Virus record (IMG/VR): IMGVR_UViG_3300036851_000232
Coordinates: 1-61,446 of that record
Length of the DNA: 61,446 nucleotides
Direction: 5' to 3' (one strand)
From: a virus
Taxonomy: Duplodnaviria; Caudoviricetes
Positions 1 to 61,446 of this stretch are shown here, one piece after another (the stretch's first letter is position 1; the number at the start of each line of letters is the position of its first letter). The translations under genes and the position numbers were made by a program. Under the pieces are notes generated by a model. That model saw nothing but the letters and a program-made list of their open reading frames with translations. It ran no database searches and was not told the origin of the DNA.

Positions 1-152
1 GCGGGGTCACCGACGAGGGCGGTCCTGGCTTTGCTGGAGGGGTGGGTGCGGCCGGCGGAGGGGGCGGTGATGACGTAGCCGCCTTCGCCGCGGGTTTCGA
101 TAAGGGTGTAGATCTTCTGGTCGGGGTTGGTCGCGAGTTCAGCTGTGGTGGC
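1..152. repeat. Terminal direct repeat / assembly overlap (copy 1), indicates circular or circularly permuted genome
   Basis: 1-152 matches 61295-61446 except T26 vs A61320; an ORF reads through the join. Confidence 0.95.
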
Positions 153-554
153 GGGCCGGCGGGCGAGTTTCAGGTTGCCGCGGGTGGTGCCGTTGACGCG
201 GTATAGCCAGTGCAGCCCGCCGGAGGGGGTGAGCTCGAGGTAGCCGTCGTTGAGCCGTTTCCACAGGTCGTTGAGATCGTTGTCGGTGATGGCGGCTGTG
301 AGCCGGTCGAGGAGTTCGGTGACGGCGCGGCCTTCGAGCTCGAACATTTCCAGGTTGCCGGACACTTTGCCGCAGACGAGGCCGATGCCGTCGTAGGCGC
401 CGTTGCTGGTCCAGGCGGCGATTTGGTCGCGGCGGGGCGGGGCGGTCATGTATTGCTTCCAGAACGCGGCTGGGGCCTTGCTGCCGTCTGGGCGTGCGGG
501 TACGACGCAGCAGCCGCTGTCGTGGAAGGCGAGCGCAGCGTCGTGCAGGGTCAC
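1..554 (-). CDS. Bifunctional DNA primase/polymerase-helicase, N-terminal Prim-Pol part (continues across the join into 61294..58885; about 987 aa total)
   Basis: My translation from GTG at 554: MTLHDAALAFHDSGCCVVPARPDGSKAP...GIGLVCGKVSGNLEMFELEG...TPSGGLHWLYRV...IETRGEGGYVITAPS, typical Prim-Pol motifs; 554+2410 nt = 988 codons in frame. Confidence 0.9.
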   Translation of the reverse strand, partial: MTLHDAALAFHDSGCCVVPARPDGSKAPAAFWKQYMTAPPRRDQIAAWTSNGAYDGIGLVCGKVSGNLEMFELEGRAVTELLDRLTAAITDNDLNDLWKRLNDGYLELTPSGGLHWLYRVNGTTRGNLKLARRPATTAELATNPDQKIYTLIETRGEGGYVITAPSAGRTHPSSKARTALVGDP

Positions 555-14535: not shown

Positions 14536-14772
14536 TCAGCTCTCCCACACCCAGTAGCCGGGCCACCGGACCTCACCGAGATCAACACCGTTGACTTCTG
14601 ACTGCTGCTGGAGCTGAAGAGCTACGACCATGCGCAAGATCGACGTCGCTCGATCATCGGAGGCAAAGAAATCAGCGATGGCCAATTCGGTGCCCTCGTG
14701 GTTGATCCATGTGTGCTCCAACAGCGCACCCACGAGACGCCGGTACTGCTCGACTAGCTCAGTCGTGGTCAT
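14536..14772 (-). CDS. Hypothetical protein
   Basis: ORF track; coupled to ParB-DUF4326 gene. Confidence 0.6.
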   Translation of the reverse strand: MTTTELVEQYRRLVGALLEHTWINHEGTELAIADFFASDDRATSILRMVVALQLQQQSEVNGVDLGEVRWPGYWVWES

Positions 14773-15758
14773 TGATCAGCCCTCGCCTTCAGCACGTCGG
14801 CGTGGCAGGGCTCAGGGGCGCACCAGCAACCGAGTGCCTTGCCGCGAAGGGTGTCGAGCTTGGCTGCGAGGCTTGGCTTGTGTGGCAGGTAGTGGACCTC
14901 GTAGTTGCGGATGACCGTGTCGCGGTCGCCGTCCTTGCCCATCTCGAACGGGTTGCCCCAGACGGTCTGCCGATCAACGCGCACGTAGAGCCCGGCGGAG
15001 TCGGCCCAGGCGATGAGTCCGTTGTGGTCACCGCGGAGGGTGACCACGATGGTTTCACCATTGCGGAGTCTTTTTAGCAGGTGGCGTTCTTCAGGGGACC
15101 AGTCGGCGAAGATGCGTTCCTCGCGGATCTCTTCGAGGATCTGCTCACAGTCAACGGGAAGGTCTTGGGCGGCTTGGCGCAGCAACTCCTCGGTTAGGTG
15201 CGCAGTTATATTCGCCTGAATATCGTTGCGCACCTGAGCTTCGCTGATGTCCAGGTGGCCGCCGATCTTGCGCGTCGACCAGCCTGCTCGCTGCAACAGC
15301 ATGGCCTTCACCTGGCGCAGTAGTTTCCGTCGTTCTGTCAGTGGAGAGAGCCATCTGCTGACGGTGGGCTGGCTGATCCCGAGCCACTTGGCGAGATCAC
15401 GCTGCGACGTGTTGACGTTCCGCCGGGCTTCTTCAAGTGCGATCTGCTCGAGGTCGCGCGTGCTCATGCGGTCGCCGTGCCGAGTCGAGAGGGATGCGGC
15501 GTACACCTTCACCGACGGCGCGGTGGCAGGCACGTCGTGCTCTTCGATAGCGATGTGGTCGAGACCTGCCTGCTGGTGTGCTCGCAGGCGGTGCATTCCG
15601 TCTAGGAGCCGATTTGTGCCGCGCTCTATGACGATGGCTGGGAACTGTGCGCCAGCTGCGAGTGCGTCGGCGTATCTGTCGACCGTGGCTGATGACCACG
15701 AGGACCGCGGATAGATGTCCAGGTCGATAACGACCTCTGTGAGACGCATATCGGTCAC
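14769..15758 (-). CDS. ParB/Srx-like N-terminal domain + HTH(s) + DUF4326-like C-terminal domain
   Basis: LLDGMHRLRA (ParB-N); SQRDLAKWLGISQPTVSRWL and STRKIGGHLDISEAQV (HTHs); VDRQTVWGNPF...LRGKALGCWCAPEPCHADVL (DUF4326 signature). GTG at 15758 with AGGAGG RBS. Confidence 0.8.
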   Translation of the reverse strand: MTDMRLTEVVIDLDIYPRSSWSSATVDRYADALAAGAQFPAIVIERGTNRLLDGMHRLRAHQQAGLDHIAIEEHDVPATAPSVKVYAASLSTRHGDRMSTRDLEQIALEEARRNVNTSQRDLAKWLGISQPTVSRWLSPLTERRKLLRQVKAMLLQRAGWSTRKIGGHLDISEAQVRNDIQANITAHLTEELLRQAAQDLPVDCEQILEEIREERIFADWSPEERHLLKRLRNGETIVVTLRGDHNGLIAWADSAGLYVRVDRQTVWGNPFEMGKDGDRDTVIRNYEVHYLPHKPSLAAKLDTLRGKALGCWCAPEPCHADVLKARADQ

Positions 15759-15892
15759 GACGCGGCCTCCTGACCGGTGGCATCGAACATCCGCCGCAAC
15801 GTGCGCGCCTGCTCTTCGGTGATCTCGGGCGAGTCCGCGAGCTGCGCGTCGAGCCACTGCTCCTCGCGGGCGCGCGCCTCAGCGGCGGTCAC
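15755..15892 (-). CDS. Small hypothetical protein (45 aa)
   Basis: Own translation MTAAEARAREEQWLDAQLADSPEITEEQARTLRRMF...; coupled. Confidence 0.55.
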   Translation of the reverse strand: MTAAEARAREEQWLDAQLADSPEITEEQARTLRRMFDATGQEAAS

Positions 15893-15986
15893 GACGCGGC
15901 CTGGGTGGGGCTCATGGGACGGCTGTGACGTGAGTCAACTGCGCGCCGATAAGGGATCTTGTGTTCGCGGTCGTCACAGGGGGCGC

Positions 15987-16259
15987 TCATGCCGCCGGTT
16001 CCTCGTCCGTCTCGCCGTCGTCGAGGACGGTGAAGAGCTTTTCGAAGCCGAGATGGGGGAAGGCGCGGAGGACGGCGGCGATGAACTCGCCTCCGGGCCG
16101 CTGGTCCCGGTTGCGGATCCGGCCGACGGTGGTCTTGGCCACGCTGAGCTGGCGGGCGACTTCGGCGTCGGTGGTCCAGCCCCGGGCGAGGCACGCGACC
16201 TCGAAGACGTCGATGTTCAATATGACGCCTGCGGCCACTGTTAGTCCTCTCATGGTCAC
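15987..16259 (-). CDS. Cro-like XRE HTH protein, first gene of leftward lytic operon
   Basis: TDAEVARQLSVAKTTVGRIRNRDQRPG HTH; divergent from repressor. Confidence 0.8.
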   Translation of the reverse strand: MTMRGLTVAAGVILNIDVFEVACLARGWTTDAEVARQLSVAKTTVGRIRNRDQRPGGEFIAAVLRAFPHLGFEKLFTVLDDGETDEEPAA

Positions 16260-16273
16260 CTACCGTGTGGAAT

Positions 16274-16396
16274 GTTGCGCATGGGCTACAAAGTAGCCGT
16301 TGCGTGCACGCGACGCAACCACCTGGGGAAAGAAATGTCAGTGCCTCTAACAGGACGAGGTCGCGTGTGTGCGTTACCGTGTTGCGTGTACGCGCC
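16274..16396. promoter_or_regulatory. Immunity switch operators (about 16-bp palindrome GTTGCGTGCACGCAAC-like, 3-4 copies)
   Basis: GTTGCGCATGGGCTAC 16274, GTTGCGTGCACGCGAC 16299, GTCGCGTGTGTGCGTT 16360, GTTGCGTGTACGCGCC 16381, between divergent HTH genes. Confidence 0.65.
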
Positions 16397-16410
16397 GAAG
16401 GGGAGACGCG

Positions 16411-16785
16411 ATGCCTGCACGCCCGCCAAGTCCGTGGGCCGGATACGTCCGCGCCCTTCTTGACACCCGGTTCGCCGGCAACGGGGCTGCCCTCGCGGCC
16501 GAGGTCGGCGTTGGTCGGTCAGCGGTCAGCCGGTGGCTGCGCGGGGCCATCCCCCGCATCGAGCATGTCCGAGCCGTTGCGCAACTCACCGGTGATCCGC
16601 TGATCGTGCTGCTGCGTTTGGCCTACGGGATTGAGTCCGAATCGGCGATGACGCCGGAAGAAGCGATCCAGGCCGATGAGCATCTCGACCAGGCCGCGAA
16701 AGAGGTTCTGCTCGCGTTGTACCGCCAGCTCCGCGAAAAATACGGCTGGGATCCGTCGAACCGGGCACACCGCACAGCGGTCTGA
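16411..16785 (+). CDS. CI-like immunity repressor (XRE HTH)
   Basis: GAALAAEVGVGRSAVSRWLRGAIP HTH; GAAGGGGAG RBS before ATG 16411; divergent from Cro-like gene. Confidence 0.82.
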   Translation: MPARPPSPWAGYVRALLDTRFAGNGAALAAEVGVGRSAVSRWLRGAIPRIEHVRAVAQLTGDPLIVLLRLAYGIESESAMTPEEAIQADEHLDQAAKEVLLALYRQLREKYGWDPSNRAHRTAV

Positions 16786-16786
16786 G

Positions 16787-16957
16787 TCAGGCGCGGGCCT
16801 CTTCTTCCTCTTCGACCAGCCGTAGCCGTTTCAGCCCGGGGCAGCGGTTCTTGGTGTCGTATGCGCCCGCCTGGTATCCGAGTTCGTACACGGCAGCCCA
16901 TGTCTCGGCCCAGCGCCGCGTCGCGACACAGATCAGCAGGCGGCGCAGCATCGGCAT
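16787..16957 (-). CDS. Small hypothetical protein
   Basis: Start MPMLRR after GAGGGG; convergent with repressor. Confidence 0.45.
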   Translation of the reverse strand: MPMLRRLLICVATRRWAETWAAVYELGYQAGAYDTKNRCPGLKRLRLVEEEEEARA

Positions 16958-17059
16958 CGGCTTCCCTGACCCCTCGTGAGAACGGAATCCCCCACCCGGA
17001 GAGCTAACGACGCCCGGCCATAGCGCGTTACGGCCCGACACCGGTTCTTTACCTTCGGT

Positions 17060-17302
17060 TCACGCGCCGCGCGGCCCGAGGATCGCGCTTTCGATCTGGT
17101 GGAACGCGTCCACCCGGCCCTGGTCGGTGGGCGGGGCAGCGGCGACGACTCGGGCAATCACACGGAGGATCACGTACGCGTCGGCGGGCGGAAGCGCATC
17201 GACCATGCGGGCGGCCCGGTCCGCGGCCGTCCGGTCCTGCTTGTAGTGCGGCCAGGACGCGGGCCAGTTCGGGTGCGCCGGTTGGGCCGGTTGCGTGGTC
17301 AT
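17060..17302 (-). CDS. Hypothetical protein downstream of GntR regulator
   Basis: AGGAGAGG RBS; ORF track. Confidence 0.65.
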   Translation of the reverse strand: MTTQPAQPAHPNWPASWPHYKQDRTAADRAARMVDALPPADAYVILRVIARVVAAAPPTDQGRVDAFHQIESAILGPRGA

Positions 17303-17316
17303 GGGGTGGTCCTCTC

Positions 17317-18075
17317 CTAGAGGTCGGAGCCGTAGAGCAGCCGGACCCGGGTCGCGTCGGAGACGGCACGCAGCACCTCGAGCCGCTGGCCGTCGTCGGT
17401 CGAGGTGATCCGGGTGGTGTCAAGGACGGCGGCACCGGGCGGCAAGTCAAGCGCGGCAGCTTCGCTAGGGGTGACGGGGCGGGCCCTGACCTGTTCGGTG
17501 TACCGGCCGGGGCGGTACCCGGCGTCGGTGAGCGCTTGGTAGATCCCGCCGGGCAGGAACACCGGCTCGGCGAGCGGTGTGCCGCCCGCGACGCTGGCCG
17601 GTATCCAGGAGGTGGTGAGCTGCGCGGGTTGCCCGTCGGCGTGCATGGTGCGGTACCGGCACACCGCAGGGCCGTCAAGGCGCAGTGCCTTGGTCACGTC
17701 GGCCGGTACCTCGTCAAGCGGTACCACGTCCACGTCATCGAGCCGTACCTGCGGTTCCATGCCGGCGCGGGTGACGGCCACCGACCAGGGCCCGCCCGCG
17801 ATGGCGCCGTTCGCGGCGGCTGCGTGCCGGGAGGTGCGGAGTTCGATGGGCCGGACGTCACGGACGACCGTGGACTGCCGTTCGTTGCCGCCGCGATGCC
17901 GGGCGATGAGGCCTTCCGCTTCGAGTTCCCGGTAGGCGCGGCGGACGGTTTCGCGGGCGGCGCCGTGCTTGCGGGCGAGCTCGGCTTCGCTGGGCATCTG
18001 CCCGCCGGGACCGAGTTGGGCGGCGAGGGCGCGCAGGTTGGCGGCGATCTTGGCCCACGTGGGGGTGTCGGGCAC
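17317..18075 (-). CDS. GntR/HutC-family regulator with UTRA domain (KorSA/TraR-like transfer repressor)
   Basis: MPSEAELARKHGAARETVRRAYRELEAEGLI wHTH; UTRA-type C-terminus (RPVTPSEAAALDLPPGAAVL..TR); GTG 18075 with GGAGG; divergent from the transfer genes. Confidence 0.88.
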   Translation of the reverse strand: MPDTPTWAKIAANLRALAAQLGPGGQMPSEAELARKHGAARETVRRAYRELEAEGLIARHRGGNERQSTVVRDVRPIELRTSRHAAAANGAIAGGPWSVAVTRAGMEPQVRLDDVDVVPLDEVPADVTKALRLDGPAVCRYRTMHADGQPAQLTTSWIPASVAGGTPLAEPVFLPGGIYQALTDAGYRPGRYTEQVRARPVTPSEAAALDLPPGAAVLDTTRITSTDDGQRLEVLRAVSDATRVRLLYGSDL

Positions 18076-18114
18076 CGGCTGCGCACCTCCGTTCACCCGT
18101 TCGTCGTGGGGTGC

Positions 18115-18164
18115 TTGACGATCCCATGCTGACGGGGGACCATCCCATTGTCTAGACCGGTACC
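18115..18164 (+). promoter_or_regulatory. Putative transfer-operon promoter and GntR operator
   Basis: TTGACG(18115)-N17-GACCAT(18138); GTCTAGAC palindrome 18150-18157 followed by CGGTACCG. Confidence 0.5.
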
Positions 18165-18182
18165 GAATGAGGGAGGCCCGCC

Positions 18183-18974
18183 GTGTCTCACGCCGGTACC
18201 GGTACCGCCGAACCCCAGGGCCGGTCGGCGCGCGGGTCAACACCCGATGCGCGGGCGGTGCCCGGTACGCCGGCCGGTCCTGGCCGGTACCGGGACCACG
18301 ACTGGTGGAAGATCACCCTTCGGGCCGTGGCCGGTACCGCCGCCGTCGTGGCCTCGTTCGTGTTCCTGGTTGACCTGGCGCGGGCGACGGGCTGGCCGGG
18401 ATGGACCGCGTACCTGCTGCCACTCTCGCTGGACGCGCTCGCGGCGGCGGCGTGGCGGATCTACGTGACCTGCGGCCGGGACCGGTTCGCCCTGTGGTGC
18501 GGTATCGGTACGACCGGGGCGACGCTGGCGGGGAACGCGGTGTCGCACCTGATCGGTACCGGGCACGTCGCGCCGGGCTGGTTGCTGGTCGCGACGGTGG
18601 GTGCGGTGCCGGCGATGAGCTTGGCGCTGGTGATCCACCTGACCGCGCCACCGAGGCTGCTGGACGCAGGTGCTGCTAGTCCCAGTCCGGCTGGGAGTTC
18701 GCTGGTAGTTGAGCGCGACGGTGCCGGCGGTCGGGGCGGGCCGCGGCCGGGGGGGATCGCCGCAGCGGGTCGGACCGCCGGCACCACAAGCCAGCGTAGC
18801 GACGACCAGCTGCTCGCCGAGATCCGCGCGCTCGGCCTCGAGCAGGTCGGGGCGGACAAGCTGACCGAGCCGCTCGGCATCAACAAGACCAGGGCGGTCA
18901 GGTTGCGGAAGCTGCTCGCCGCCGAGCTCGTACCGGCCAGCGGGAACGGACACACAGATGGGAGCACGCCATGA
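18183..18974 (+). CDS. DUF2637/Spd-like membrane protein (4 TM + C-terminal HTH-like region)
   Basis: ASFVFLVDLARATGWPGWTAYLLPLSLD...TLAGNAVSH...VGAVPAMSLALVIHL pattern of actinomycete plasmid spread proteins; GAGGGAGG RBS. Confidence 0.75.
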   Translation: MSHAGTGTAEPQGRSARGSTPDARAVPGTPAGPGRYRDHDWWKITLRAVAGTAAVVASFVFLVDLARATGWPGWTAYLLPLSLDALAAAAWRIYVTCGRDRFALWCGIGTTGATLAGNAVSHLIGTGHVAPGWLLVATVGAVPAMSLALVIHLTAPPRLLDAGAASPSPAGSSLVVERDGAGGRGGPRPGGIAAAGRTAGTTSQRSDDQLLAEIRALGLEQVGADKLTEPLGINKTRAVRLRKLLAAELVPASGNGHTDGSTP

Positions 18975-19174
18975 CCCCCGCGCTTTTCGTGATCATGATG
19001 ATGTTGGGTGCCGCGATCTTCGTGTCGATACGCGCCAAGCAGACGAAGATCTGGGAACTCGTCATGCTCGGCACATTCGGCGCGCTACTCGGCCAAGTAA
19101 CGATCGGCTCCGCGTACCTGTCCGGGCTGAGCAGCGTGTCCACGTCCCTGTTCGCCGCGATCGGCCTCGGCTGA
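18971..19174 (+). CDS. Small two-TM membrane protein (Spd-like accessory)
   Basis: Hydrophobic 67 aa ORF coupled between Spd-like gene and translocase. Confidence 0.7.
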   Translation: MTPALFVIMMMLGAAIFVSIRAKQTKIWELVMLGTFGALLGQVTIGSAYLSGLSSVSTSLFAAIGLG

Positions 19175-19180
19175 CACCCG

Positions 19181-20743
19181 GTGACGGCCGAACTGCAGGA
19201 ACGCGCCGGTACCGTCGCCGTCATGCCACTGCCCGTTGATCCGCCGGGTGAGGACACCGAGCCGGTACCGGCGGGCAGGCTGGGGCTGGTTCGGCGCGGC
19301 TGCGGTTGGTACGCGGGTTGTGTGCGCAACTACTTCCGACGCGGTTGCTCCGAGGCGTACCAGGCGTGGCGGTCCCGGGTGGACCTGTGGGCCGAGGGTA
19401 GCCATCGACTCAGGTCCGACTGCGAGATGTACACGAACGACCGGGTGGAGTGGCGGGAGAGGGAGAAGCAGCGCCGCAAGCAGCTGGAGAGGGAGGACGA
19501 GGCAGCTGTCCGGAAGGCGCTCGAGGAGAAGCAGCCGGTACCGAAGCCGTCGAAGTTCAAGCCGCGGGACCCGTGTCGCGAGCTGCATCGGCAGAGGATC
19601 ATGCGCAAGGCCGTGTCGCCGGTTGCCGGCGTCATCGGCCCTGCCCTAGCGGCGGTCGCCCTGGTATTCGGCGGCCCGGCCCTGATCCAGCAGGCACTGG
19701 TCGCCGCGCACGGTACCGCCCTCGCGACCGGATTCGCGGTTGCTGCTGCGATGGTTCTCGCGGTGGCCGCAGTGACGGTGTTGTCGGTGTTCGGGCAGGT
19801 CCGCAGCGAGCCAGCGGTACCAGTCGATCCCGGCGGGGAGGAGGACGCGACACCGTGGTCCCGGATCACCATCGGGAGGTTCCTCGACGACGGTTCGCCG
19901 ATCGAGATCCCGTTCGGCGACCATGTGCTGATCGCCGGTGCCACCGACGCGGGGAAGTCCAACCTTGTCAACGTTGTCATCTCGAAGATCGCCCCGTTCC
20001 CGGAGGTCGAGCTGTACGGCATCGACTTGAAGGGCGGCGTGGAACTCGGCCCGTGGGAGAACGTCCTCGTGGAGCTGGCCGAGGACGACAAGGCTGCGGT
20101 CGCGTTGCTGCGGCGGCTCAGTGAGGAGATGGACCGCCGGTACCGCACGCTCCGCGCTGCCGGGCGGAAGAACTGGCGGCTGCAGGACGGCCGATTCATG
20201 AAGGTGATCGTGGATGAGTTGGCCGAGTTGCCGAAAGCGGGCGTGGATCTCCTTACCCGGTTGGCGCTGCTCGGCCGCGCCGCCGGGATCTCTTTGGTGT
20301 GCGCCACACAACAGCCCGAGGTGGCGGTGATTCCGCAGCAGGCAAGGGGTCAGCTCCGTACCGTGCTCGGTCTGCGGGTGGAGCGGGCTGAGCAGGCCCG
20401 GCAGGTGTTCGGGGAGCGGGCGACCCGCGAGGGATGGGATCCGGCGTCGCTGGACCCGACGAAGCGGGGATCGCTGCTGGTCCGGTCGAAGTGGTGCACG
20501 GAGCCGCGGCCGGGCCGGTCGACGCGGATCACGGACGGCGAGGTCCGCGCACGTGCGAAGGAGTACGCGAGGACGCCACGCGAATATGTGGCCGAGGATC
20601 GGCCAGCCGGCGAGGGGGAAGAGCGGCGGTGCTTGTACTGCGGGAAGCCGCCCACGGATCCGCGCGCGAAGTACTGCTCGCCCGCGCATCGGAAAGAGCA
20701 TTGGCGACGCTTGCGACGCTTCGGCCCAGATGGGGGTTCCTGA
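19181..20743 (+). CDS. traB: TraB-like FtsK/SpoIIIE DNA translocase
   Basis: Two TM helices, HVLIAGATDAGKS Walker A, IDLKGGVEL, VIVDELAEL Walker B, GRAAGISLVCATQQP; gene context GntR-spd-tra. Confidence 0.85.
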   Translation: MTAELQERAGTVAVMPLPVDPPGEDTEPVPAGRLGLVRRGCGWYAGCVRNYFRRGCSEAYQAWRSRVDLWAEGSHRLRSDCEMYTNDRVEWREREKQRRKQLEREDEAAVRKALEEKQPVPKPSKFKPRDPCRELHRQRIMRKAVSPVAGVIGPALAAVALVFGGPALIQQALVAAHGTALATGFAVAAAMVLAVAAVTVLSVFGQVRSEPAVPVDPGGEEDATPWSRITIGRFLDDGSPIEIPFGDHVLIAGATDAGKSNLVNVVISKIAPFPEVELYGIDLKGGVELGPWENVLVELAEDDKAAVALLRRLSEEMDRRYRTLRAAGRKNWRLQDGRFMKVIVDELAELPKAGVDLLTRLALLGRAAGISLVCATQQPEVAVIPQQARGQLRTVLGLRVERAEQARQVFGERATREGWDPASLDPTKRGSLLVRSKWCTEPRPGRSTRITDGEVRARAKEYARTPREYVAEDRPAGEGEERRCLYCGKPPTDPRAKYCSPAHRKEHWRRLRRFGPDGGS

Positions 20744-20860
20744 GCGTGGGCAGCTTCTCTGATGGAGATGCGTCGCATGCGTCGCACCGCAGGTCAGGGG
20801 GCTTGCGATGCGTCGCATCATGCGTCGCTTCGCTGGAAGCGTCGCATCATGCGTCGCATC
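20704..20860. repeat. clt-like repeat cluster at traB 3' end (ATGCGTCGC x5, AAGCGTCGC x1, two inverted copies)
   Basis: Direct copies at 20768, 20777, 20808, 20820, 20837 (variant), 20849; GCGACGCT at 20704 and 20713. Confidence 0.85.
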
Positions 20861-20864
20861 TGTC

Positions 20865-21305
20865 GTGATTCCGTCGTGGCTGGTCTCAGCAGATGGCATC
20901 CTCGACCGTGTCCTGTCGCCGCTGGATCCGCTGGTAGCCGACCGGTGGCACTGGTTGCCGGTGCTGGCCGTGGCGTGGTGGACGGTGCGCTGGTTCTCGT
21001 ATCGGCCGGGTCTGTGGCTGGCGATGCTCCGCTGCCGGTTGCTGCGCCGGGGTGGTGAGCGGACCGCCCTGTACCGGTGGTTCGACGGGTCGGGGAGGTT
21101 GCGGTATGTGGGGATCTCGAATGATGTGCGGCGGCGCACCGGTCAGCATGCGGCGGGGAAGTGGTGGTGGTTCGAGGTGCGGTCCTGCACCGTGGAGTGG
21201 TTCGACACTCGGGGTGCGGCGTTGGCGGCGGAGCGCGCTGCGATCCGGGCGGAGCGGCCCCGGCATAACGTGGTCCACAACGGGCGACGGAGGGCGGCGG
21301 CGTGA
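20865..21305 (+). CDS. GIY-YIG nuclease with hydrophobic N-terminal segment
   Basis: TALYRWFD..GRLRYVGIS...RRRTGQH...KWWW...AAERAAIRAERPRHN; start uncertain. Confidence 0.78.
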   Translation: MIPSWLVSADGILDRVLSPLDPLVADRWHWLPVLAVAWWTVRWFSYRPGLWLAMLRCRLLRRGGERTALYRWFDGSGRLRYVGISNDVRRRTGQHAAGKWWWFEVRSCTVEWFDTRGAALAAERAAIRAERPRHNVVHNGRRRAAA

Positions 21306-21574
21306 CCGAGGTCGAGCGCGGCGATCTGGTGGATGCGGCGTACGCGCTGTTGATGGCGGCGATCCTGCTGCGCGACATGGCCGGCGCGATGCCCGCCAAG
21401 ACGTTCGTGGCGATGCCGCCGGATATTGCGGACCGGCTGATGTGGACTGGTTATCAGGACGCCTTCGACCGCCTGCCGGCCGATGTTCGGGGCGAGGCGC
21501 GTGCGCGGGTGTTAGCTGACCCGGCGGTTGTCGCGGCGCGTGCGCTTGATGCTGCGAACGGTCTCCGGGCATGA
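21302..21574 (+). CDS. Hypothetical protein, last gene of transfer operon
   Basis: GGAGGG RBS; GTGA coupling. Confidence 0.65.
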   Translation: MTEVERGDLVDAAYALLMAAILLRDMAGAMPAKTFVAMPPDIADRLMWTGYQDAFDRLPADVRGEARARVLADPAVVAARALDAANGLRA

Positions 21575-21576
21575 CG

Positions 21577-21623
21577 AAAGCCGCCCCGCTCCCCGGAGGA
21601 GGAGAGCGAGGCGGCGCTTGTTG
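21577..21623. terminator. Stem-loop between convergent transfer and lysis operons
   Basis: AAA-GCCGCCCCGCTCCCC...GGAGAGCGAGGCGGC-GCTTGTT imperfect hairpin. Confidence 0.55.
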
Positions 21624-21631
21624 GTAACGAG

Positions 21632-21754
21632 TCAGTACCCGCCGGTGGCGATCGTGGATGTGAGAATCAGCCCGATCAGCAGCGCGATACAGAACGCGGT
21701 CACTTGCCAGGCGGCGAGGTGTTCGCGGTGTGGTACGCGGTGGCGGGCGCGCAT
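21632..21754 (-). CDS. Small membrane peptide (40 aa)
   Basis: Own translation MRARHRVPHREHLAAWQVTAFCIALLIGLILTSTIATGGY. Confidence 0.45.
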   Translation of the reverse strand: MRARHRVPHREHLAAWQVTAFCIALLIGLILTSTIATGGY

Positions 21755-21757
21755 GAG

Positions 21758-22111
21758 TCACACGTCGATTCGTACCCCGGTGGTGACGGCGACGAGGATG
21801 AACAGCATCACCACGATGATGAGCAGCAGGATCTCGACGGTGGTGATCCCGGCGTCGTCCGCGGGGGGTCGGGGGGCGTGCCGGGCGCGGCTGGCGGTGG
21901 CCTGCGCCTGGGCGTATTCGCGGGTCGCGTAGCCGGCGGCGGTGACGGCCGCGGTGATGATCAGCCCAGCGAGTTCCGGATCAAGGTCGTAGCCGACGAT
22001 GCGGCGCGTCGCGAAGATCAGCAGCGTCGCCGCGGCGCCGCCACCGAACACGGCGGTGACCTTGCGGGTGGGGGCGAGGCTGGGCTGGGAGGCGACGTGC
22101 CGGCCGGTCAC
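21758..22111 (-). CDS. Holin-like membrane protein
   Basis: PTRKVTAVFGGGAAATLL...AAVTAAGY plus third TM; downstream of endolysin. Confidence 0.65.
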   Translation of the reverse strand: MTGRHVASQPSLAPTRKVTAVFGGGAAATLLIFATRRIVGYDLDPELAGLIITAAVTAAGYATREYAQAQATASRARHAPRPPADDAGITTVEILLLIIVVMLFILVAVTTGVRIDV

Positions 22112-22386
22112 GCGGCACCTCTTGTCGCGAAGTACGGTTTCATCTCGCAGTCGGGGCGGTACCCGCAGCGCGGATCACGGACGGTCCCGCCGCCGGCCGT
22201 GATGGTCATGTGCTCGCATGCGTAGCCCGAGGCTCGGATCACCTCGACGGGCTCGAACTCCCGGTAGCACTCATATATCCGCATGGATGCCTGGTCCTCG
22301 ATGTTCTCCACCCAGCGTGTCGGCGCGTGGAGCCGGCGGGTCAGCCAAGCGCAGAAGATCAACGCGGTCGCGCGGGCGTACTTCAT
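22108..22386 (-). CDS. Hypothetical protein
   Basis: Start MKYARA after GGAGGA. Confidence 0.5.
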   Translation of the reverse strand: MKYARATALIFCAWLTRRLHAPTRWVENIEDQASMRIYECYREFEPVEVIRASGYACEHMTITAGGGTVRDPRCGYRPDCEMKPYFATRGAA

Positions 22387-22643
22387 CAGTCCTCCACCCG
22401 TTCGGGCCAGTGCCACGTGCCGGGACGGCGGTCCTCGTCGTGCTCGCAGTCGTTGAAAAACAGCCCGGTCGGGTTGAGGACGACCAGTGAGCACAGGTCG
22501 CCGGGGACGTCCTCCGTGTTGACGTACGGCCCGCCTATGTCGCAGACCTCAGCGATCACGGCCGCGCGGCACGTGCTGGTGTACTCCCCACCAGGGGTGC
22601 CGTAGCTGACGTAGTGGACGATTCTTCCGATGCTTGGCCTCAT
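22386..22643 (-). CDS. Conserved phage hypothetical protein (PSIGRIVHY...W.WP type)
   Basis: Recognisable MxPSIGRIVHY...RAAVI...TWHWPER pattern. Confidence 0.75.
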   Translation of the reverse strand: MRPSIGRIVHYVSYGTPGGEYTSTCRAAVIAEVCDIGGPYVNTEDVPGDLCSLVVLNPTGLFFNDCEHDEDRRPGTWHWPERVED

Positions 22644-23485
22644 GGCTGCGGCTCCGCAGCGGACTCGGCGGCCGGTGTCTCGTTCTTCACCGTCACGGTG
22701 ACGTCGATCGCCGCGTCGGCGAGGAGCTGCCGCACCTGATCCTGGGTGAGGTCGTTCGCGTCGTCCTCCGCGATCGCCTTGACCGCCACGACGGAGTTCG
22801 CGAACGTCATGTCGAGCAGGTGCTTGATCGCCGGTGGGGGCCGCTCACCCCAGATCTCCCCGGCCGACGGGCTCCAGAAGCGCACTGGGCGTCCCCAGAA
22901 ATGAGCGTCAAACGCGGCCCAGTCGGCGGCGTCCCACTTCTCCGGTCCGGTAGTCGACACGGATACCTCCGGTTGCTTGGTCAGGGTGCCGCCCCGGACG
23001 AGCGCGGTCACGGCCGCGCCGGGGCATTCGGTGGGTGCGGCTCGCACGTCGTTGTGCGTCTTCACGGCCGTCGCGCCGGGATAGCGCCTGAGGAGCCGGG
23101 TGGTGCGCCAGTCCCGGAACGCCTGCACCATCGCATCGGTGGGTTTGTCGCCCGTGCCGAGGATCCACAGGCAGGCGGTGTAATCGGCGTTCGACTGGGT
23201 GCCACCGTTCGCCGCGGTGCGGCAGTCGAGGCCACGGAGCTCCCACACGCAGCCGTGCCAGTCGATGCCGACGCCGTACGCGATGTCGGACCAGCCCTTT
23301 GAGTCCATGTGGTACGCCTGCCAGCCGCGGAGCTGCGACGCGACCTGCGCGTCGGACAGCCCGACCAGCTTCGCATCGGAGCCGGGCCAGTGGCAGGCGA
23401 CGCCGAGCGGCCGCCCGGTCGGGAACGAGGTGCAGCCGCGGCGGGCGCGTAGTCCGGCGTCGGCCCTACTCCGGTACGTCGTCAC
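22640..23485 (-). CDS. Endolysin, N-acetylmuramoyl-L-alanine amidase (Amidase_2/PGRP-like)
   Basis: HW, QAYHMDSKGWSDIAY, ELRG, HNDV..TECPG zinc-amidase motifs; start GTG 23485 inferred. Confidence 0.85.
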   Translation of the reverse strand: MTTYRSRADAGLRARRGCTSFPTGRPLGVACHWPGSDAKLVGLSDAQVASQLRGWQAYHMDSKGWSDIAYGVGIDWHGCVWELRGLDCRTAANGGTQSNADYTACLWILGTGDKPTDAMVQAFRDWRTTRLLRRYPGATAVKTHNDVRAAPTECPGAAVTALVRGGTLTKQPEVSVSTTGPEKWDAADWAAFDAHFWGRPVRFWSPSAGEIWGERPPPAIKHLLDMTFANSVVAVKAIAEDDANDLTQDQVRQLLADAAIDVTVTVKNETPAAESAAEPQP

Positions 23486-23579
23486 CGGGCTCGTCTTCGT
23501 GGTCGCCCGCGAGTTCGTCGGCAGAGACGGTGCCGGACTCGACCTCGTCGGGGGTCGGACTGGTCGGTTGTTCGGACAT
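23466..23579 (-). CDS. Small acidic peptide (37 aa)
   Basis: GAGGAGG RBS; MSEQPTSPTPDEVESG... Confidence 0.5.
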   Translation of the reverse strand: MSEQPTSPTPDEVESGTVSADELAGDHEDEPGDDVPE

Positions 23580-23595
23580 GGGGCGTTCCTCCTCG

Positions 23596-24309
23596 TCAGT
23601 CTTGGACGCACACCCACCACTGCTCCCCACCGGGAGCCGGGTCCGGGTCGCGTTGCTCGCCGTGATAACCCTCTGGACACGGCGGGCCTGCCGGGCCTGG
23701 ATCTCCGGGATCGCCCTTGCCGCCTTTCTCGCCGCGACATTCGCCATGAGCGTCGCAATAGGTAGCGACGGCTGCGGCGATCTGTTCGTCAGACGGCGGG
23801 GGTCCCTGCGATCCAGGTGTCCCATCGACACCGTCGCGGCCGTCGACACCGGCCCTGCCGTCCTGACCGGTCGATCCTCGGCATTCGCCGCGAGCGTTGC
23901 AGAACGTGGCGACCGCGGCGGCGACCTGCGCGGGCGACGGCCCATCCCCGGCGGGGCCGCGGCAACCGCTCCGCGGCGCGCAATAGGCGGCCACAGCGGC
24001 GGCCACCTGCGCGGCGCTCGGGGGTGCCCCTTCGGGGCCGCGGATGCCGCGCAGTCCAGGTTCACCGGGAGGTCCGTCCGCCCCGACGACGATCTCCGGG
24101 TTGCGGGCAATCTGCTCGGCGGGCGGGGTGACCGGCTCGTCGCCGCGCGTCTCCGTCGCCCGCTGCTCCTGTGTGAGCGCCGTGTACAGGGCGGCGATCT
24201 GCTCGTCCTGGCCGCGTTGCTGCCACGCCACCCACAAGGTGAGCACGGCCATGGCGATCACGACGACGCCGATGACCCGCAGCCCCGACAGCCTCCGATG
24301 CGCGATCAT
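23596..24309 (-). CDS. Membrane-anchored collagen-like (G-X-Y) protein of lysis region
   Basis: N-terminal TM; GXY runs alternating with three 'QVAAAVAxYC..R.EC.G' repeats. Confidence 0.75.
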   Translation of the reverse strand: MIAHRRLSGLRVIGVVVIAMAVLTLWVAWQQRGQDEQIAALYTALTQEQRATETRGDEPVTPPAEQIARNPEIVVGADGPPGEPGLRGIRGPEGAPPSAAQVAAAVAAYCAPRSGCRGPAGDGPSPAQVAAAVATFCNARGECRGSTGQDGRAGVDGRDGVDGTPGSQGPPPSDEQIAAAVATYCDAHGECRGEKGGKGDPGDPGPAGPPCPEGYHGEQRDPDPAPGGEQWWVCVQD

Positions 24310-24836
24310 TCGCATTCCTTCGGCAACATGGGCAGCGGCGTTCCGGTGCGTTTCTGATCGAGGACGCGGCGTTCTTTGGCGAGCTGGGTCCGCCCGGCTA
24401 GGTACTCCTCGGTGATCCGCTGCCTGTCCGCCGGGTCAGCGGCGAGGAGGTCTTGCAGCCATTTGCTGATGCTGTCCCGGTCCTCGCGGGCGTTTTCGCG
24501 ACCCTCGTCGGCGATCCGGTCCCGCACCCGCAGGGCATCGGTGAAGTCGTCGACGAACCGGGTCTGGCAGGCGGTGACGCGGGCCTGCTGCCGTTCGAAC
24601 ACGATCCCCTGCACGACGGTGGCGACCGCGAGCAGCAGCACGATCACGCCGAGCGCCCGCTCACCCAGCCGCCCCGACCGGTGGTGCCGCACCCGGGTCG
24701 GGGGTTCGCCGTCCACGACCACTTCCCTGATCTCACGGATCTCGCGCCGTAGCCGCCCGACGAGGAACCCGATGACGAGGCCGGCGGTGAACCATGCGAT
24801 CGAGTTCGCCACTTCGGTGAGGACTTCACCGCTCAT
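24306..24836 (-). CDS. Two-TM membrane protein (lysis region)
   Basis: ORF track; hydrophobic helices. Confidence 0.7.
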   Translation of the reverse strand: MSGEVLTEVANSIAWFTAGLVIGFLVGRLRREIREIREVVVDGEPPTRVRHHRSGRLGERALGVIVLLLAVATVVQGIVFERQQARVTACQTRFVDDFTDALRVRDRIADEGRENAREDRDSISKWLQDLLAADPADRQRITEEYLAGRTQLAKERRVLDQKRTGTPLPMLPKECE

Positions 24837-33323: not shown

Positions 33324-33412
33324 CGAGTCACCTCCTCGCCGGTTCGGGTGTCGCTGAGACGCGGTCGGTGCTGTACTGGCAGTGACCACTCACCGCAGGG
33401 GGGACGAGTTCG

Positions 33413-52007: not shown

Positions 52008-52235
52008 ATGACCGAGTATCTCGACACCGCCGCGGTGGCCCGCATGCTCGACGTGCGGGCCGAAACGGTCAGCCGGTACAAGCACCGCGACCCCACGTTC
52101 CCCGACCCCGACATCACGCTGTCCGGCCGGCCCGGCTGGAAACGCTCCACCATCCGCGCCTGGATGCGCCAACGCCCCGGCCGCGGTGCTGGTGGCGGCC
52201 GGCCCAGCAAGGACGCTCAGTACCGCGCCATGTAG
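52008..52235 (+). CDS. AlpA/excisionase-like HTH protein
   Basis: YLDTAAVARMLDVRAETVSRY...FPDPD....RPGW...TIRAW..RPGRG. Confidence 0.78.
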   Translation: MTEYLDTAAVARMLDVRAETVSRYKHRDPTFPDPDITLSGRPGWKRSTIRAWMRQRPGRGAGGGRPSKDAQYRAM

Positions 52236-54302: not shown

Positions 54303-54357
54303 AGCGCCTCCTCGGGCACGCGGAAGCCCCGGCACTCGGGAGGAAGACCGGGGCTAG

Positions 54358-54431
54358 TGGCGGGTGTCGGAGTCGAACCGACCTGGCTCGGCGTATGAAA
54401 CCGTTCAGCACGACCGGTGCTGCTACCCGCT
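54358..54431 (-). tRNA. tRNA-Met(CAU)-like, initiator-like/degenerate
   Basis: Folds as AGCGGGT/ACCCGCC acceptor, CAGC/GCTG D-stem, TTCATAC anticodon loop, GTCGG-TTCGACT-CCGAC T-arm. Confidence 0.75.
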
Positions 54432-58471: not shown

Positions 58472-58888
58472 TCAGAACGGTGGTTCGTCATCGAGCCGCT
58501 CCTCTTCTCGATTCGGGGCCGGGACCGGCGGCGAGGCGTCGAGCGGCGGCAGGGGGTCGTGGCATTTGTGATCAGCGACCACATGAGCGTCGGTGCCGGC
58601 GGGTCGTCCGGTGATCCTCAAAGCGTCGCGGCGGTTGATCTCGTAGTGGTCGCCGCGCCAGGTGAGCTGGTAGGTGGCGCGGCCGGTGAGGAGCGCGGAG
58701 GCCTCGCCGCAGGGTTCGAGGGGGTGGGGGTCGCAGGTGGCGGGGAGAGCGGCCCGGTCATCGTCGAGGCCTCGGAGGACTACTTGCCCGCAGTTGCGGC
58801 AGAGGGTGGTGCGAGCGCGACGGCTGATGCCGTCGGGGTTGTGGCGGCCGATGGTTTCGAGGTGGGTCTGCAGCCAGGTGGGGATCAT
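58472..58888 (-). CDS. Conserved actinophage hypothetical protein after primase
   Basis: CRNCG.VVLRGLD...DPHPL...GE..ALLTGR.TY; AGGAGG RBS. Confidence 0.65.
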   Translation of the reverse strand: MIPTWLQTHLETIGRHNPDGISRRARTTLCRNCGQVVLRGLDDDRAALPATCDPHPLEPCGEASALLTGRATYQLTWRGDHYEINRRDALRITGRPAGTDAHVVADHKCHDPLPPLDASPPVPAPNREEERLDDEPPF

Positions 58889-61446
58889 GTGGGGATTTCC
58901 TCCTGGATGGTGCTGGCGGAGCAGAGGTCGGCGGTGGCGCCGCAGGTGAGGCAGACCTCGCCAGGTGTTTTCGGTGTCCAGGGCGGACACGCGGCCCGTG
59001 CGGGGTTTGCGGGCTTTGCGGGGTCTGTTTCCGGCCCACGCTCATGGCCATTTTCTGTTGATCTTTCCCCTAGTCCGGTTTGTACCGTATTGATCTGGAG
59101 GTCTTCTCGCGCGGTGAGGAAATTAGAACCCGCAAACACCGCAAACCCCGCAGGTTCATATCGCTGGACCCGCCATAACTTGATCTTGTCGTGGGCGTTT
59201 TGCCCGGCCTGCCGGACCGACAGGTCACCCGCCCAGCGGCCATCCCGGTTGGCCAACCAGCGGCCCAACGACTTGCCGATCACCGACAACCCGGCCTTGG
59301 ACCTGGCCGCCTTGTCCGCGAGATCGGCAGGCAGCGCGTCGAGGGGGATCGGGTGCGCGGCCTTCCACTGCCTGACGATTTCGCTGTCGTCGGCGAACCG
59401 TGCCGTGTCGTCGCCGGTGTCGACCTTGGCCAGCAGCTCCTTGACCGACCACGTGCCCTCGCCGAACGCGGCCTGGGCGGCAGCGAGGAAGTTGTGCCAG
59501 TCGTCGTCGTCGGTGCCGACGTCGAGTCGCGTGTCATCGTGATCGAACACCCCGGGCATGCCCGCATGGGCGAGGATGCCGCGGATGGTGCGGACCCAGG
59601 TCGTGTAGCTGTCGCTGCCTGCCTGCCCGCCAAGCGGCTTACCGGCGATGATCCAGGCGCGGGCGAAGGTGAGCAGCGCGGCCAGGAGTTCGCCGCGGCG
59701 GTCCCGGACCCAGGTCTCGAGGTCGGTGATGGCGAAGCCGGTGCGGCGTTCCGGGTTGGGCACACCCGGGTCGATTTCGACGGGGATGGTGCGCCGGGGC
59801 AGGTCACCGCCGATCGCGATGTTGTTCCCGGTGATCATCCACAGCCGGTCGTTGCGGCGGGAGATCATCTCGTTGGAGCCGAGCCGGCGGTCGTCCCATT
59901 GGGGGGAGGTGAGCAGCCCCGACAGGGTGGAGGAGCGGAGCACGCCGGTGACGTTGTCGATGTGGATGACGGGGCCGGTGGTGACGTCGAGGATCGCGCT
60001 GATCTGTTTCCGAAGTTCCGCGTCGTCTTCGGGCATTTCGGCGCGGAACACGCCGCCGTGGATGATGCGGTTGACGGTGGCGAGGAGGGTTTTGCCGCTG
60101 CCGGGTTGCGGCGCGGTGATCGCGGTGAGCTTGTACGGCGGTGGTGTGATCTGGCGGAGCAGGGGGGTGAGCAGTGCCCCGAGGTAGTTCGCCTTGTGGT
60201 GGTCGGTGACGAACGGGAACCCGGCGACCATCTCGTGTATCAGCGCGACCGCTGCGCCGAGTTGCGTCGTGGTGGGTGTGTCGGGGACGGGGGGCATGTC
60301 GAAGCCGGGTTCGGGGAGGTGGAGGAGGCCGCTGGCCTGGTCGTAGCCGGGGGCGGTGAGCATGGTGCCGTCGCGTCGCAGGATCGGGGTGTGGGTGACG
60401 CCGCGTAGCCTGCGAAGGTTGGGCAGCATGTCGGGCACGTCTACCGGGATTTTCGCGGCGGCGGCGGGGAATGTGGCGTGCACCTTGACGGGGTCGTCTT
60501 TCGGGCCGGCGCGCCGATAGCACCAGTACATGTAGGTCATCCTTGCGGCGAGCGCGGAGGCGGTGACGGGGCGGACCTGCGCGGGCCCGTCGGTGTCGTC
60601 GTCGTCGCCGGTGAGGGGGACGTACCCGTCTTCGTTCTCCCGCGGGGTGTGGACGATGTCTCCGGTGCGGTTGAACATGCCGGCGAGCCGGCCGGTGCCG
60701 GTGTTGTCGCGGAGCCAGTCGGCGGCGTCGGCGGGGAGAGTGACGTCGAACTCCGGTCGTGTCATCTCGGTGTCTGGCTGATCGGGGGCCGGTTCGTCAG
60801 TGTCGGGGCCGGCGAGTTCGCACAGGTCGCTGTCGGGCTTGGGTGCTGGCCCGCCGTAGCCCTGCCGTCGAAGTTCTTTGGCGGCGGTGCTGTAGTTCCC
60901 GCCGTGTTCGAGGTGGGTGTGTGCGGCGAACTTCGAGTAGGGCTTCTCGGTGTCGAAGATCGTGGAGGTGGAGAAAACGTAGAGCCGGTCCGCGCCGTCG
61001 GCGGAGGTGCCGGTGGTGGCGGAGATGACGGTGCCGGTCTTGCCGGGGCGGCACCAGCCGAGGCCGCCGCCGGTGAGGCGGCGGGTGATGCGCCAGCCGT
61101 GGGGTTCGAGGATGTCGGTCCAGGTGGCTTTCTGGTTGTAGTCGTCGCCGGGCCGGGCTCCTGTCCCGTCATAGGTCGCCGTGTTCTGGTTGCCCCATGT
61201 TTCTGCTGGCAAAGTTTCGGCGGGCATCTGGTCGAGCAGCGTGGCGACGGCGTGCAGGGCGTCGCGTTCGTCTTCCGAAATGAGGGGGATGGTGGCGGGG
61301 TCACCGACGAGGGCGGTCCAGGCTTTGCTGGAGGGGTGGGTGCGGCCGGCGGAGGGGGCGGTGATGACGTAGCCGCCTTCGCCGCGGGTTTCGATAAGGG
61401 TGTAGATCTTCTGGTCGGGGTTGGTCGCGAGTTCAGCTGTGGTGGC
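58885..61446 (-). CDS. Bifunctional primase/polymerase-helicase, central and C-terminal P-loop part (starts at 554 across the join)
   Basis: RPGDDYN..W.DILEPHGW, WCRPGK, LYVFSTST; APQPGSGKT Walker A, IDNV, ITGNN. Confidence 0.88.
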   Translation of the reverse strand, partial: ATTAELATNPDQKIYTLIETRGEGGYVITAPSAGRTHPSSKAWTALVGDPATIPLISEDERDALHAVATLLDQMPAETLPAETWGNQNTATYDGTGARPGDDYNQKATWTDILEPHGWRITRRLTGGGLGWCRPGKTGTVISATTGTSADGADRLYVFSTSTIFDTEKPYSKFAAHTHLEHGGNYSTAAKELRRQGYGGPAPKPDSDLCELAGPDTDEPAPDQPDTEMTRPEFDVTLPADAADWLRDNTGTGRLAGMFNRTGDIVHTPRENEDGYVPLTGDDDDTDGPAQVRPVTASALAARMTYMYWCYRRAGPKDDPVKVHATFPAAAAKIPVDVPDMLPNLRRLRGVTHTPILRRDGTMLTAPGYDQASGLLHLPEPGFDMPPVPDTPTTTQLGAAVALIHEMVAGFPFVTDHHKANYLGALLTPLLRQITPPPYKLTAITAPQPGSGKTLLATVNRIIHGGVFRAEMPEDDAELRKQISAILDVTTGPVIHIDNVTGVLRSSTLSGLLTSPQWDDRRLGSNEMISRRNDRLWMITGNNIAIGGDLPRRTIPVEIDPGVPNPERRTGFAITDLETWVRDRRGELLAALLTFARAWIIAGKPLGGQAGSDSYTTWVRTIRGILAHAGMPGVFDHDDTRLDVGTDDDDWHNFLAAAQAAFGEGTWSVKELLAKVDTGDDTARFADDSEIVRQWKAAHPIPLDALPADLADKAARSKAGLSVIGKSLGRWLANRDGRWAGDLSVRQAGQNAHDKIKLWRVQRYEPAGFAVFAGSNFLTAREDLQINTVQTGLGERSTENGHERGPETDPAKPANPARAACPPWTPKTPGEVCLTCGATADLCSASTIQEEIPT
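58999..59152. repeat. Inverted 9-bp-period triplets flanking AT-richer spacer, candidate replication origin
   Basis: TGCGGGGTTTGCGGGCTTTGCGGGG (58999-59023) and CCCGCAAACACCGCAAACCCCGCA (59129-59152). Confidence 0.55.
61295..61446. repeat. Terminal direct repeat / assembly overlap (copy 2)
   Basis: Matches 1-152 with one mismatch. Confidence 0.95.

Follow-up and report, generated by a model that had tools for sequence, protein, structure and literature searches.

We analysed a stretch of phage DNA of 61,446 bp (referred to here as the window; G+C ∼69 %), which is the entire IMG/VR record IMGVR_UViG_3300036851_000232 and which, by gene content, holds the tailed-phage genome of a temperate-looking siphovirus. 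Between the cI/Cro-like switch and the holin and endolysin genes of this phage lies a module of ∼4.5 kb (positions 17060–21574) that, as judged by sequence comparison, is genuinely related to the TraR/Spd/TraB/clt system by which Streptomyces plasmids and actinomycete integrative and conjugative elements (AICEs) transfer and spread. The host is a soil actinomycete, probably a mycelial one, and we put the probability that the module lets phage DNA move without a capsid from one hyphal compartment or cell to another at slightly above one half (∼0.55). A preliminary description of this DNA had predicted a GntR-UTRA regulator divergent from an operon for a DUF2637-type protein, a small membrane protein, an FtsK/SpoIIIE ATPase and a GIY-YIG nuclease, and all of these genes were found in place (Pfam; the DUF2637 assignment is borderline, as detailed below). 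The module comprises the following features, with ORF denoting an open reading frame and GC3 the G+C content at third codon positions.

17060–17302, minus strand: ORF of 80 aa, starting 15 nt after the regulator stop (GC3 0.88), without a match in Pfam, PHROG, PADLOC or NCBIfam
17317–18075, minus strand: GntR-UTRA regulator (TraR/KorA-like), 252 aa; ORF open to 18243
17651–20145: palindrome CGGTACCG, 12 copies, candidate GntR operators
18076–18182: divergent control region of 107 bp, with GTCTAGAC at 18150, CCGGTACC at 18157 and GGGAGG ahead of the GTG at 18183
18183–18974, plus strand: membrane protein of the DUF2637 family (four hydrophobic helices), occupying the place of SpdB2
18971–19174, plus strand: hydrophobic membrane protein of 67 aa, its start overlapping the upstream DUF2637 stop (ATGA)
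19181–20743, plus strand: TraB-like double-stranded DNA translocase, 520 aa (Pfam FtsK_SpoIIIE, 70 bits)
20704–20865, plus strand: clt-like array of two inverted and six direct GCGTCGC cores, −39 to +114 of the translocase stop (20743)
20808–21305, plus strand: small GIY-YIG nuclease (Pfam 30.2 bits; phrog_3312/16880 endonuclease; 44 % to Gordonia phage Holliday gp88)
21302–21574, plus strand: ORF of 90 aa, its start overlapping the GIY-YIG stop (GTGA)

Gene order, candidate operators and a repeat array

The regulator contains GntR and UTRA domains (Pfam scores of 42.7 and 64 bits, respectively), and its start more likely lies at 18075, giving 252 aa, the same length as TraR of the Streptomyces venezuelae plasmid pSVH1, to which it is 32 % identical over 246 aa. 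In a comparison with PLSDB, 139 of the 161 records matched by the regulator were Streptomyces plasmids; amongst phages the sole match was pMLP1 of Micromonospora. The transfer/spread region of pSVH1 consists of traR divergent from spdB3-spd79-spdB2-orf108-traB, and clt, i.e. a GntR gene on the minus strand and then two small genes, SpdB2, a small ORF and the FtsK/SpoIIIE protein TraB (772 aa) on the plus strand, and the order in the window is the same. The earlier reading of this layout as a Streptomyces plasmid or AICE transfer region is thus borne out by the annotated pSVH1 record. As described in passages of Thoma et al. (2015; PMC4447253), traB is the sole gene essential for transfer in a pSVH1-type system and spd genes are needed for intramycelial spreading; traR could not be deleted, TraR binds TTTGGTACACAACT repeats, and clt regions contain direct 8-bp repeats. 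DUF2637 genes were additionally found to adjoin Tra genes in all three small Streptomyces plasmids examined, and the start/stop overlaps at 18971 and 21302 resemble translationally coupled spd operons. The DUF2637 protein itself had no tblastn match in phages or plasmids, and neither the 67-aa protein (Pfam, PHROG and NCBIfam) nor the 90-aa ORF (Pfam and PHROG) matched any family. A promoter scan returned no promoters, and terminator-like sites numbered two, with 1.8 expected, so that the scan was uninformative. A GIY-YIG gene is also present near the GntR/DUF2637 region of a 124-kb linear plasmid of Streptomyces sp. NBC_00105 (L004, 5935–10146), and the window nuclease gave no alignment with it.

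The palindrome CGGTACCG occurs 13 times in the window, and 12 of these copies fall inside the module (at 17651, 18158, 18194, 18200, 18285, 18332, 18554, 19207, 19263, 19536, 19711 and 20138). For the 8-mer CCGGTACC we counted 16 two-strand matches, compared with a mean of 2.14 and a maximum of 6 in 100 shuffles. One copy of CGGTACCG adjoins the window's sole GTCTAGAC, in the divergent control region. Those copies that lie within genes occupy all three codon phases, which marks the motif as a signal in the DNA rather than a peptide repeat. Since a GGTAC core is common to CGGTACCG and the published TraR operator TTTGGTACACAACT, the 12 sites are likely, as candidates, to be operators of the window's own GntR repressor. 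The hexamer GGTACC (the KpnI site) is found 24 times in the window, 16 times in 2.6 kb of the module and 8 times in the other 58.8 kb.

The repeat cluster that had been noted alongside these genes proved to be real. All five copies of ATGCGTCGC in the window lie within 20768–20857, and together with one variant and two inverted GCGACGC copies (20704 and 20713) they amount to eight cores in ∼160 bp (20704–20857); five of the eight window copies of TGCGTCGC likewise fall in 89 bp of the array. The GIY-YIG nuclease likely starts near 21023, and as its domain begins only at residue 88 of ORF 20808–21305, the region from 20744 to ∼21022 is probably non-coding and houses the array. In the pSVH1 record the TRS 8-mer GACCCGGA, the clt repeat unit of that plasmid, is present in five exact copies and in three with one mismatch, between +5 and +135 relative to the traB stop, some of them inverted. 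The two arrays are alike in place, unit length and copy number, but differ in their units (GACCCGGA versus ATGCGTCGC). In a curated TraB plasmid of S. longwoodensis, a different 8-mer is likewise repeated five times between −5 and +85 of the gene's stop, and repeat arrays 3′ of the translocase gene recur at three further loci (L028 and L011, described below, and L133). We infer that the window array is a putative clt-like loading site for the translocase.

The translocase and its proposed function

The translocase is composed of a coiled-coil N-terminus, hydrophobic helices (residues ∼146–205), an FtsK-type motor (∼225–470) and a tail with Cys/His residues and an RRLRR motif (484–513). Its Walker A (G253..G258-K259-S260) and Walker B (D345-E346) motifs, previously described as intact, are invariant across 17 relatives. 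A membrane anchor is indicated by two long hydrophobic stretches at ∼146–205 in the sequence and by helices at 131–207 in the AlphaFold model. The same model (AF2) has pLDDT values >93 for residues 230–470 of the motor, and the best Foldseek matches were Escherichia coli FtsK (2IUS, E-value 7 × 10−17) and FtsK on double-stranded DNA, then the conjugation coupling protein TcpA and EccC. Amongst NCBIfam models, plasmid_TraB ranked first (53.7 bits), ahead of FtsK (36) and EccCa (34.5), and the motor could be aligned with that of pSVH1 TraB at 31 % identity over 265 aa (E-value 5 × 10−17). The protein ends 50 aa past the motor in a CxxC..C..H pattern and then RRLRR, both conserved in the relative P0002 and modelled as loops with one helix (501–513); this tail gave no alignment with the ‘RRQRL zinc-binding protein’ of a Streptomyces plasmid. 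PADLOC assigned no defence system, its matches being at the P-loop level only.

An exhaustive search returned 10,631 relatives of the translocase at an E-value of 1 × 10−3 and only 16 at 1 × 10−30. The sole close relative, P0002, is 69 % identical over 99 % of the length and lies on a 2.2-kb contig; no close relatives were found in IMG/VR using the single protein as query, nor in 185,579 species genomes using a two-sequence alignment as query. A motor tree was built by a quick method from 258 columns and 68 rows, comprising the window protein, 12 of 120 first matches, 40 of 150 representatives, eight references from annotated records and seven named chromosomal FtsK proteins, without an EccC row. 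Chromosomal FtsK, gp183 of mycobacteriophage Bobby and an Actinomadura plasmid ‘FtsK’ formed a clade (SH-aLRT 96–98) that excludes the window protein; the rest of the tree, including pSVH1 TraB, small-plasmid Tra proteins and gp10 of Streptomyces phage Gilgamesh, was a poorly resolved radiation in which plasmid Tra proteins are not monophyletic. A check put forward at the outset was whether the ATPase groups with TraB or with FtsK and EccC. Its place outside the FtsK clade, the first rank of TraB in NCBIfam and its relatives in AICEs speak for TraB; on the other side, the score misses the 800-bit cut-off of the TraB model, and the tree has no single clade of plasmid Tra proteins.

In the mechanism that we propose, the GntR-UTRA repressor would bind the CGGTACCG palindromes and silence the divergent operon, following a kil/kor logic, until relieved by a ligand. 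The ATGCGTCGC array immediately 3′ of the translocase gene would be where the membrane-anchored FtsK-type hexamer loads. Helped by the pore-type DUF2637 protein and the 67-aa membrane protein, this hexamer would then drive the genome of the phage or prophage, as double-stranded DNA, across septal cross-walls and points of hyphal contact. In this way the phage would gain a capsid-free route of spread and, given that neither int nor parA is present, a prophage that is not integrated could be carried through the mycelium by the same route. A different task for the membrane ATPase would be that of a defence or exclusion moron, which keeps foreign DNA out or ejects it on entry (exclusion of superinfection or conjugation) and exports none of the phage's own. 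The PHROGs class for such genes is ‘moron, auxiliary metabolic gene and host takeover’, and in PADLOC the ATPase domain matches SspH (68.5 bits), mad8 and HerA. These similarities are limited to the P-loop domain, however, the partner genes of those systems are absent, and both the cis repeat array and the TraR-type control would be left without explanation, making a defence function very improbable.

The phage genome and the state of the prophage

The principal features of the window outside the module are listed below.

14769–15857, minus strand: ParB-like/DUF4326 fusion (ParB_N 13 bits, several helix-turn-helix motifs, C-terminal DUF4326 82 bits)
15987–16259, minus strand: Cro-like gene, divergent from the cI-like gene
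16369–16785, plus strand: cI-like repressor (HTH_3, phrog_3949), left flank of the module
21758–22111, minus strand: holin (phrog_9284), right flank of the module
22640–23758, minus strand: endolysin (phrog_1493), right flank of the module
23596–24315, minus strand: collagen-repeat protein with minor tail/fibre-like PHROG matches, overlapping the longest endolysin ORF reading
30036–33389: tape measure, 1117 aa
45884–48112 and 44297–45487: protease and capsid
49965–51599: portal
52217–53701: terminase large subunit (TerL)
54357–54431, minus strand: single tRNA-Met (CAT), between the terminase region and upstream genes
Early genes: Cro-like, ParB-like/DUF4326, HNH, exonuclease, RuvC-like, WhiB, methylase and primase/polymerase (Prim-Pol)

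The virion, packaging and lysis gene set is complete (the start of the endolysin probably lies near 23485), in keeping with the earlier description of the rest of the contig as an intact-looking tailed phage. The first 152 nt of the window are repeated directly as its last 152 nt (1–152 and 61295–61446; 151 of 152 positions match), and both window ends cut one Prim-Pol gene (phrog_19930 positions 10–187 at 554..3 and 160–808 at 61446..58885). The terminal repeat, together with this single gene split over both ends, indicates that the assembly is a closed circle of ∼61.3 kb without host flanks. Despite this circular closure, the record is labelled as linear and 76 % complete. Circularity is uninformative with regard to a plasmid state, as it is expected of any circularly permuted phage. 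Using translocase, portal, endolysin and ParB-like protein as probes, we found no close relative of the phage in the collections searched: the portal protein showed at most 53 % identity to any phage and had no plasmid match, and the five IMG/VR loci matched by the endolysin and ParB-like probes had at most one gene in common with the window (tblastn with GC3-filtered window ORFs, both probe genes excluded).

Since the record is a metagenome assembly, and G+C is slightly higher at 17–19 kb (0.72 versus ∼0.69), one might suspect that an AICE or plasmid fragment was mis-assembled onto a phage. Contigs of a public soil run nevertheless cross the left edge of the module (15833–17102) without mismatch, and another contig runs from the translocase to the module end (19346–21756) with five differences near its own end; depth is even over both, at ∼10–14. 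Read continuity at the module edges, put forward at the outset as a check, thus gave no sign of a chimeric join, although short contigs of one soil run, possibly the source sample, are weak evidence against a chimera. The contigs listed leave 17103–17247, 17629–18135, 18617–19345 and 21757–23062 uncovered (172 further pieces are unlisted), and joints with sides of only 20–34 nt were taken as noise. The recurrence of the same kind of insertion in unrelated phage contigs (see below) is the better argument and, moreover, a module without int and rep makes no autonomous element; we find an assembly artefact hardly credible.

Six-frame profile searches of the window detected neither a tyrosine integrase (PF00589) nor a serine recombinase (PF00239), confirming that the phage lacks an integrase as had been noted, and also neither AAA_31 ParA nor RepSA. 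The genome's sole partition-like candidate is the fusion at 14769–15857, just downstream of the Cro-like gene, in which ParB_N scores below its cut-off. The missing integrase would suit a prophage maintained as a plasmid, but does not prove such a state. Of the proposal that this is a conjugative phage-plasmid, the complete virion genes and the transfer-type module stand, whilst the plasmid part lacks ParA and RepSA and has just the 13-bit ParB_N match to rely on. One possible reading, which we offer tentatively, is of a temperate phage without an integrase that is kept as free DNA in a mycelium. A TraB-type pump would distribute it through hyphae and spores and also conjugate it into new hosts, and in this pump a zinc-ribbon-like tail that reads a new 9-bp repeat would have replaced the usual winged-helix reader. 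If true, this would be a virus with two independent infection routes.

A role in maintenance only would assign a narrower task to the same genes: in the manner of septal translocases of the FtsK/SffA type, the pump and its membrane partners would clear or deliver non-integrated prophage copies across sporulation and vegetative septa in place of parABS, the array would be a loading or centromere site, and there would be no transfer to other individuals. The gene for a small membrane protein directly upstream of the ATPase gene, which is the arrangement of smeA-sffA, would fit such a role, as would FtsK itself being the best structural match. The lack of integrase and ParA and the marginal ParB_N score point the same way, as does the position of the module, at the site that int or parABS occupies in actinophages (for extrachromosomal phages of cluster A, see PMC7157519). 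In disagreement with this, the translocase is not part of the chromosomal FtsK clade, those relatives whose context could be read belong to conjugative elements, and the regulator, DUF2637 gene and array match the pSVH1 transfer region, where traB alone is essential for transfer. We therefore consider maintenance alone unlikely, with the qualification that the two readings overlap, as plasmid spreading and transfer use one machine.

The module might instead act in the lytic phase, moving replicating phage DNA to neighbouring hyphal compartments and thereby enlarging the infected zone, with no role for the lysogen. Parts of Thoma et al. (2015; PMC4447253) can be cited in favour, in which SpdB2 homologues of phages phiC31 and VWB are discussed as possible aids to phage DNA spreading, and the occurrence of TraB-like genes in phages with integrases (L040 and Gilgamesh, below) shows that such genes are not tied to a plasmid lifestyle. 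Nearly all window genes are carried on the minus strand, however, and only the operon (18183–21574) and the cI-like gene are read in the opposite direction. With a dedicated repressor and 12 candidate sites, its control looks independent of the lytic cascade, and a purely lytic function is on balance quite doubtful.

Several observations weigh against the transfer function that we favour. No plasmid replication or partition genes were recognized, which makes a plasmid state of the prophage conjectural, and the 9-bp array could equally consist of iterons or represent a centromere. The DUF2637 score of 22.9 bits barely exceeds the cut-off of 22.8, and a BLAST comparison of the protein with SpdB2 of pSVH1 gave no match; in an Atlas feature search, 27 of its 30 matches were in DUF2637 clusters, and SpdB2 of pSVH1 itself has no Pfam match at 1 × 10−4. 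The equivalog cut-off of plasmid_TraB, at 800, is far above the score of the translocase. That model also ranks first for pSVH1 TraB, with just 41 bits, so that the cut-off evidently describes a narrow subfamily. The position of the translocase in the quick-method tree would support nothing beyond its exclusion from the FtsK clade. The C-terminal winged helix with which TraB-type proteins read clt is absent from both the window translocase and P0002, whereas relatives P0122–P0124 and the L011 protein have a winged-helix/MarR-like C-terminus; on sequence grounds, the defining TraB feature, a C-terminal DNA reader, is thus missing or replaced. With a Cys/His tail in its stead, recognition of the array by the window translocase is conjecture. 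Finally, as no close phage relative was present in the collections searched, an old and a newly acquired module are indistinguishable.

Comparison with known transfer systems and phages

In species genomes we found 29 translocase loci (in Actinoplanes, Cryptosporangium, Parafrankia, Nocardia, Krasilnikovia and others), 10 of which had a GntR-like match 2–3 kb upstream. Four were annotated, and by sequence all four are identified as AICEs: three are elements of the pSAM2 type with FtsK-like, RepSA and tyrosine integrase genes, two of them with GntR-UTRA upstream (L104 and L118), whilst in the fourth the FtsK-like gene is preceded by a Nudix gene and followed immediately by a serine recombinase. 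Elements of the pSAM2 type (pif-korSA-spd-traSA-repSA-xis-int) harbour translocase relatives in Krasilnikovia, Actinopolymorpha, Parafrankia and Actinoplanes; unlike them, the window has no RepSA, integrase or Nudix gene, and it has a full virion and lysis set. Amongst metagenome loci longer than 7 kb, RepSA and an integrase were present in 5 of 16. Five closer metagenome loci are small islands amid housekeeping genes; integrases are present in two of these, and two interrupt a methyltransferase gene. In L145 (2239–13413) and L135, an island of ∼10 kb with a TraB-like gene halves an S-adenosyl methyltransferase (Methyltransf_19) gene.

The suggested search of viral databases for phage contigs with a similar block was productive. 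IMG/VR yielded 80 loci, 72 of low G+C with FtsK-like genes of ∼440 aa and eight with a G+C of at least 0.60, of which seven were annotated. In L020 (6555–11209) and L028 (6527–11209), two contigs related to each other, a GntR-UTRA gene on the minus strand precedes two ORFs and an FtsK-like gene of 650–670 aa on the plus strand, beside portal, head-morphogenesis and protease genes; the regulator belongs to PHROG 10724, as does that of the window, and CCGGAC-type 8-mers repeat just past the ATPase stop. L011 has an endolysin, then DUF2637 and FtsK-like genes, then early phage genes. The order in L040 (11–13247) is tape measure, endolysin, FtsK-like gene and tyrosine integrase, indicating that the pump occurs in integrating phages too; this contig and the window have minor-tail (phrog_5313) and endolysin (phrog_1493) families in common. 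L012 contains phage replication genes, and L014 and L090 have no hallmark gene within reach.

The best phage match of the translocase was Gilgamesh gp10 (35.6 % over residues 229–475), for which plasmid_TraB is likewise first in NCBIfam. In contrast with the window, Gilgamesh (129 kb) has an integrase and neither GntR nor DUF2637 neighbours. A 7.8-kb segment of this phage could be aligned along 87 and 73 % of its length, at 76 % identity, with circular ‘plasmids’ of 129.7 and 125.4 kb, respectively, in two Streptomyces genomes. Close relatives of Gilgamesh (itself L003) are deposited as circular ‘plasmids’ of 125–133 kb in several Streptomyces genomes, each with an FtsK-like gene (L002 and H133–H139); these look like unrecognized phage-plasmids. 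The FtsK-like proteins of cluster J mycobacteriophages, unlike the window protein, fall inside the chromosomal FtsK clade.

The preliminary description knew of no characterized example of such a phage, a statement contradicted by pZL12, said to have been reported by Zhong et al. in 2010 as a Streptomyces plasmid-phage with a transfer locus, and reportedly able to spread without virions. Its record (GQ919031) contains a GntR gene (pZL12.80) divergent from an operon with a membrane protein that ends in an FtsK/SpoIIIE-like gene (pZL12.71c). The pZL12.80 protein is 32 % identical to the window regulator, TerL is 37 % identical, and a Nudix gene lies nearby in pZL12. It differs in its size (90 kb), in an FtsK-like protein without a BLAST match to the window protein at an E-value of 1 × 10−3, and in having no 8-mer array after the gene; by sequence, its ATPase would belong to another lineage. 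Part of PMC4487206 presents pZL12 as a well-characterized plasmid that carries ParA/ParB. A functional study of an FtsK-like DNA translocase in prophages was not amongst the matches listed in our literature search, and the matches on phage-plasmids of Streptomyces with TraB were reviews or overviews of plasmids (one being PMC12282955).

Conjugation by TraB requires neither a relaxase nor a type IV secretion system, and the usual screens for conjugation genes consequently miss such modules. Actinophages with this one-protein system recur, namely pZL12, the Gilgamesh-type plasmids, several IMG/VR contigs and the window. If these modules work, then the host range and persistence of temperate actinophages, as well as gene flow amongst antibiotic-producing soil bacteria, would include a capsid-free route, for which this compact module of 4.5 kb, whose candidate operators and loading sites are clear, offers a convenient test case. 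Amongst the closest known systems, which also include pIJ101 korA/kilA and pSN22, pSVH1 differs from the window in that the latter is a 61-kb tailed-phage genome without a rep gene, with an ATPase of 520 rather than 772 aa that has no C-terminal winged helix. The kind of element to which the window belongs is already known, if largely overlooked, with pZL12 as its one cultured precedent; new here are the compact, pSVH1-like operon, the lack of int, par and rep, and the replaced DNA-reading tail.

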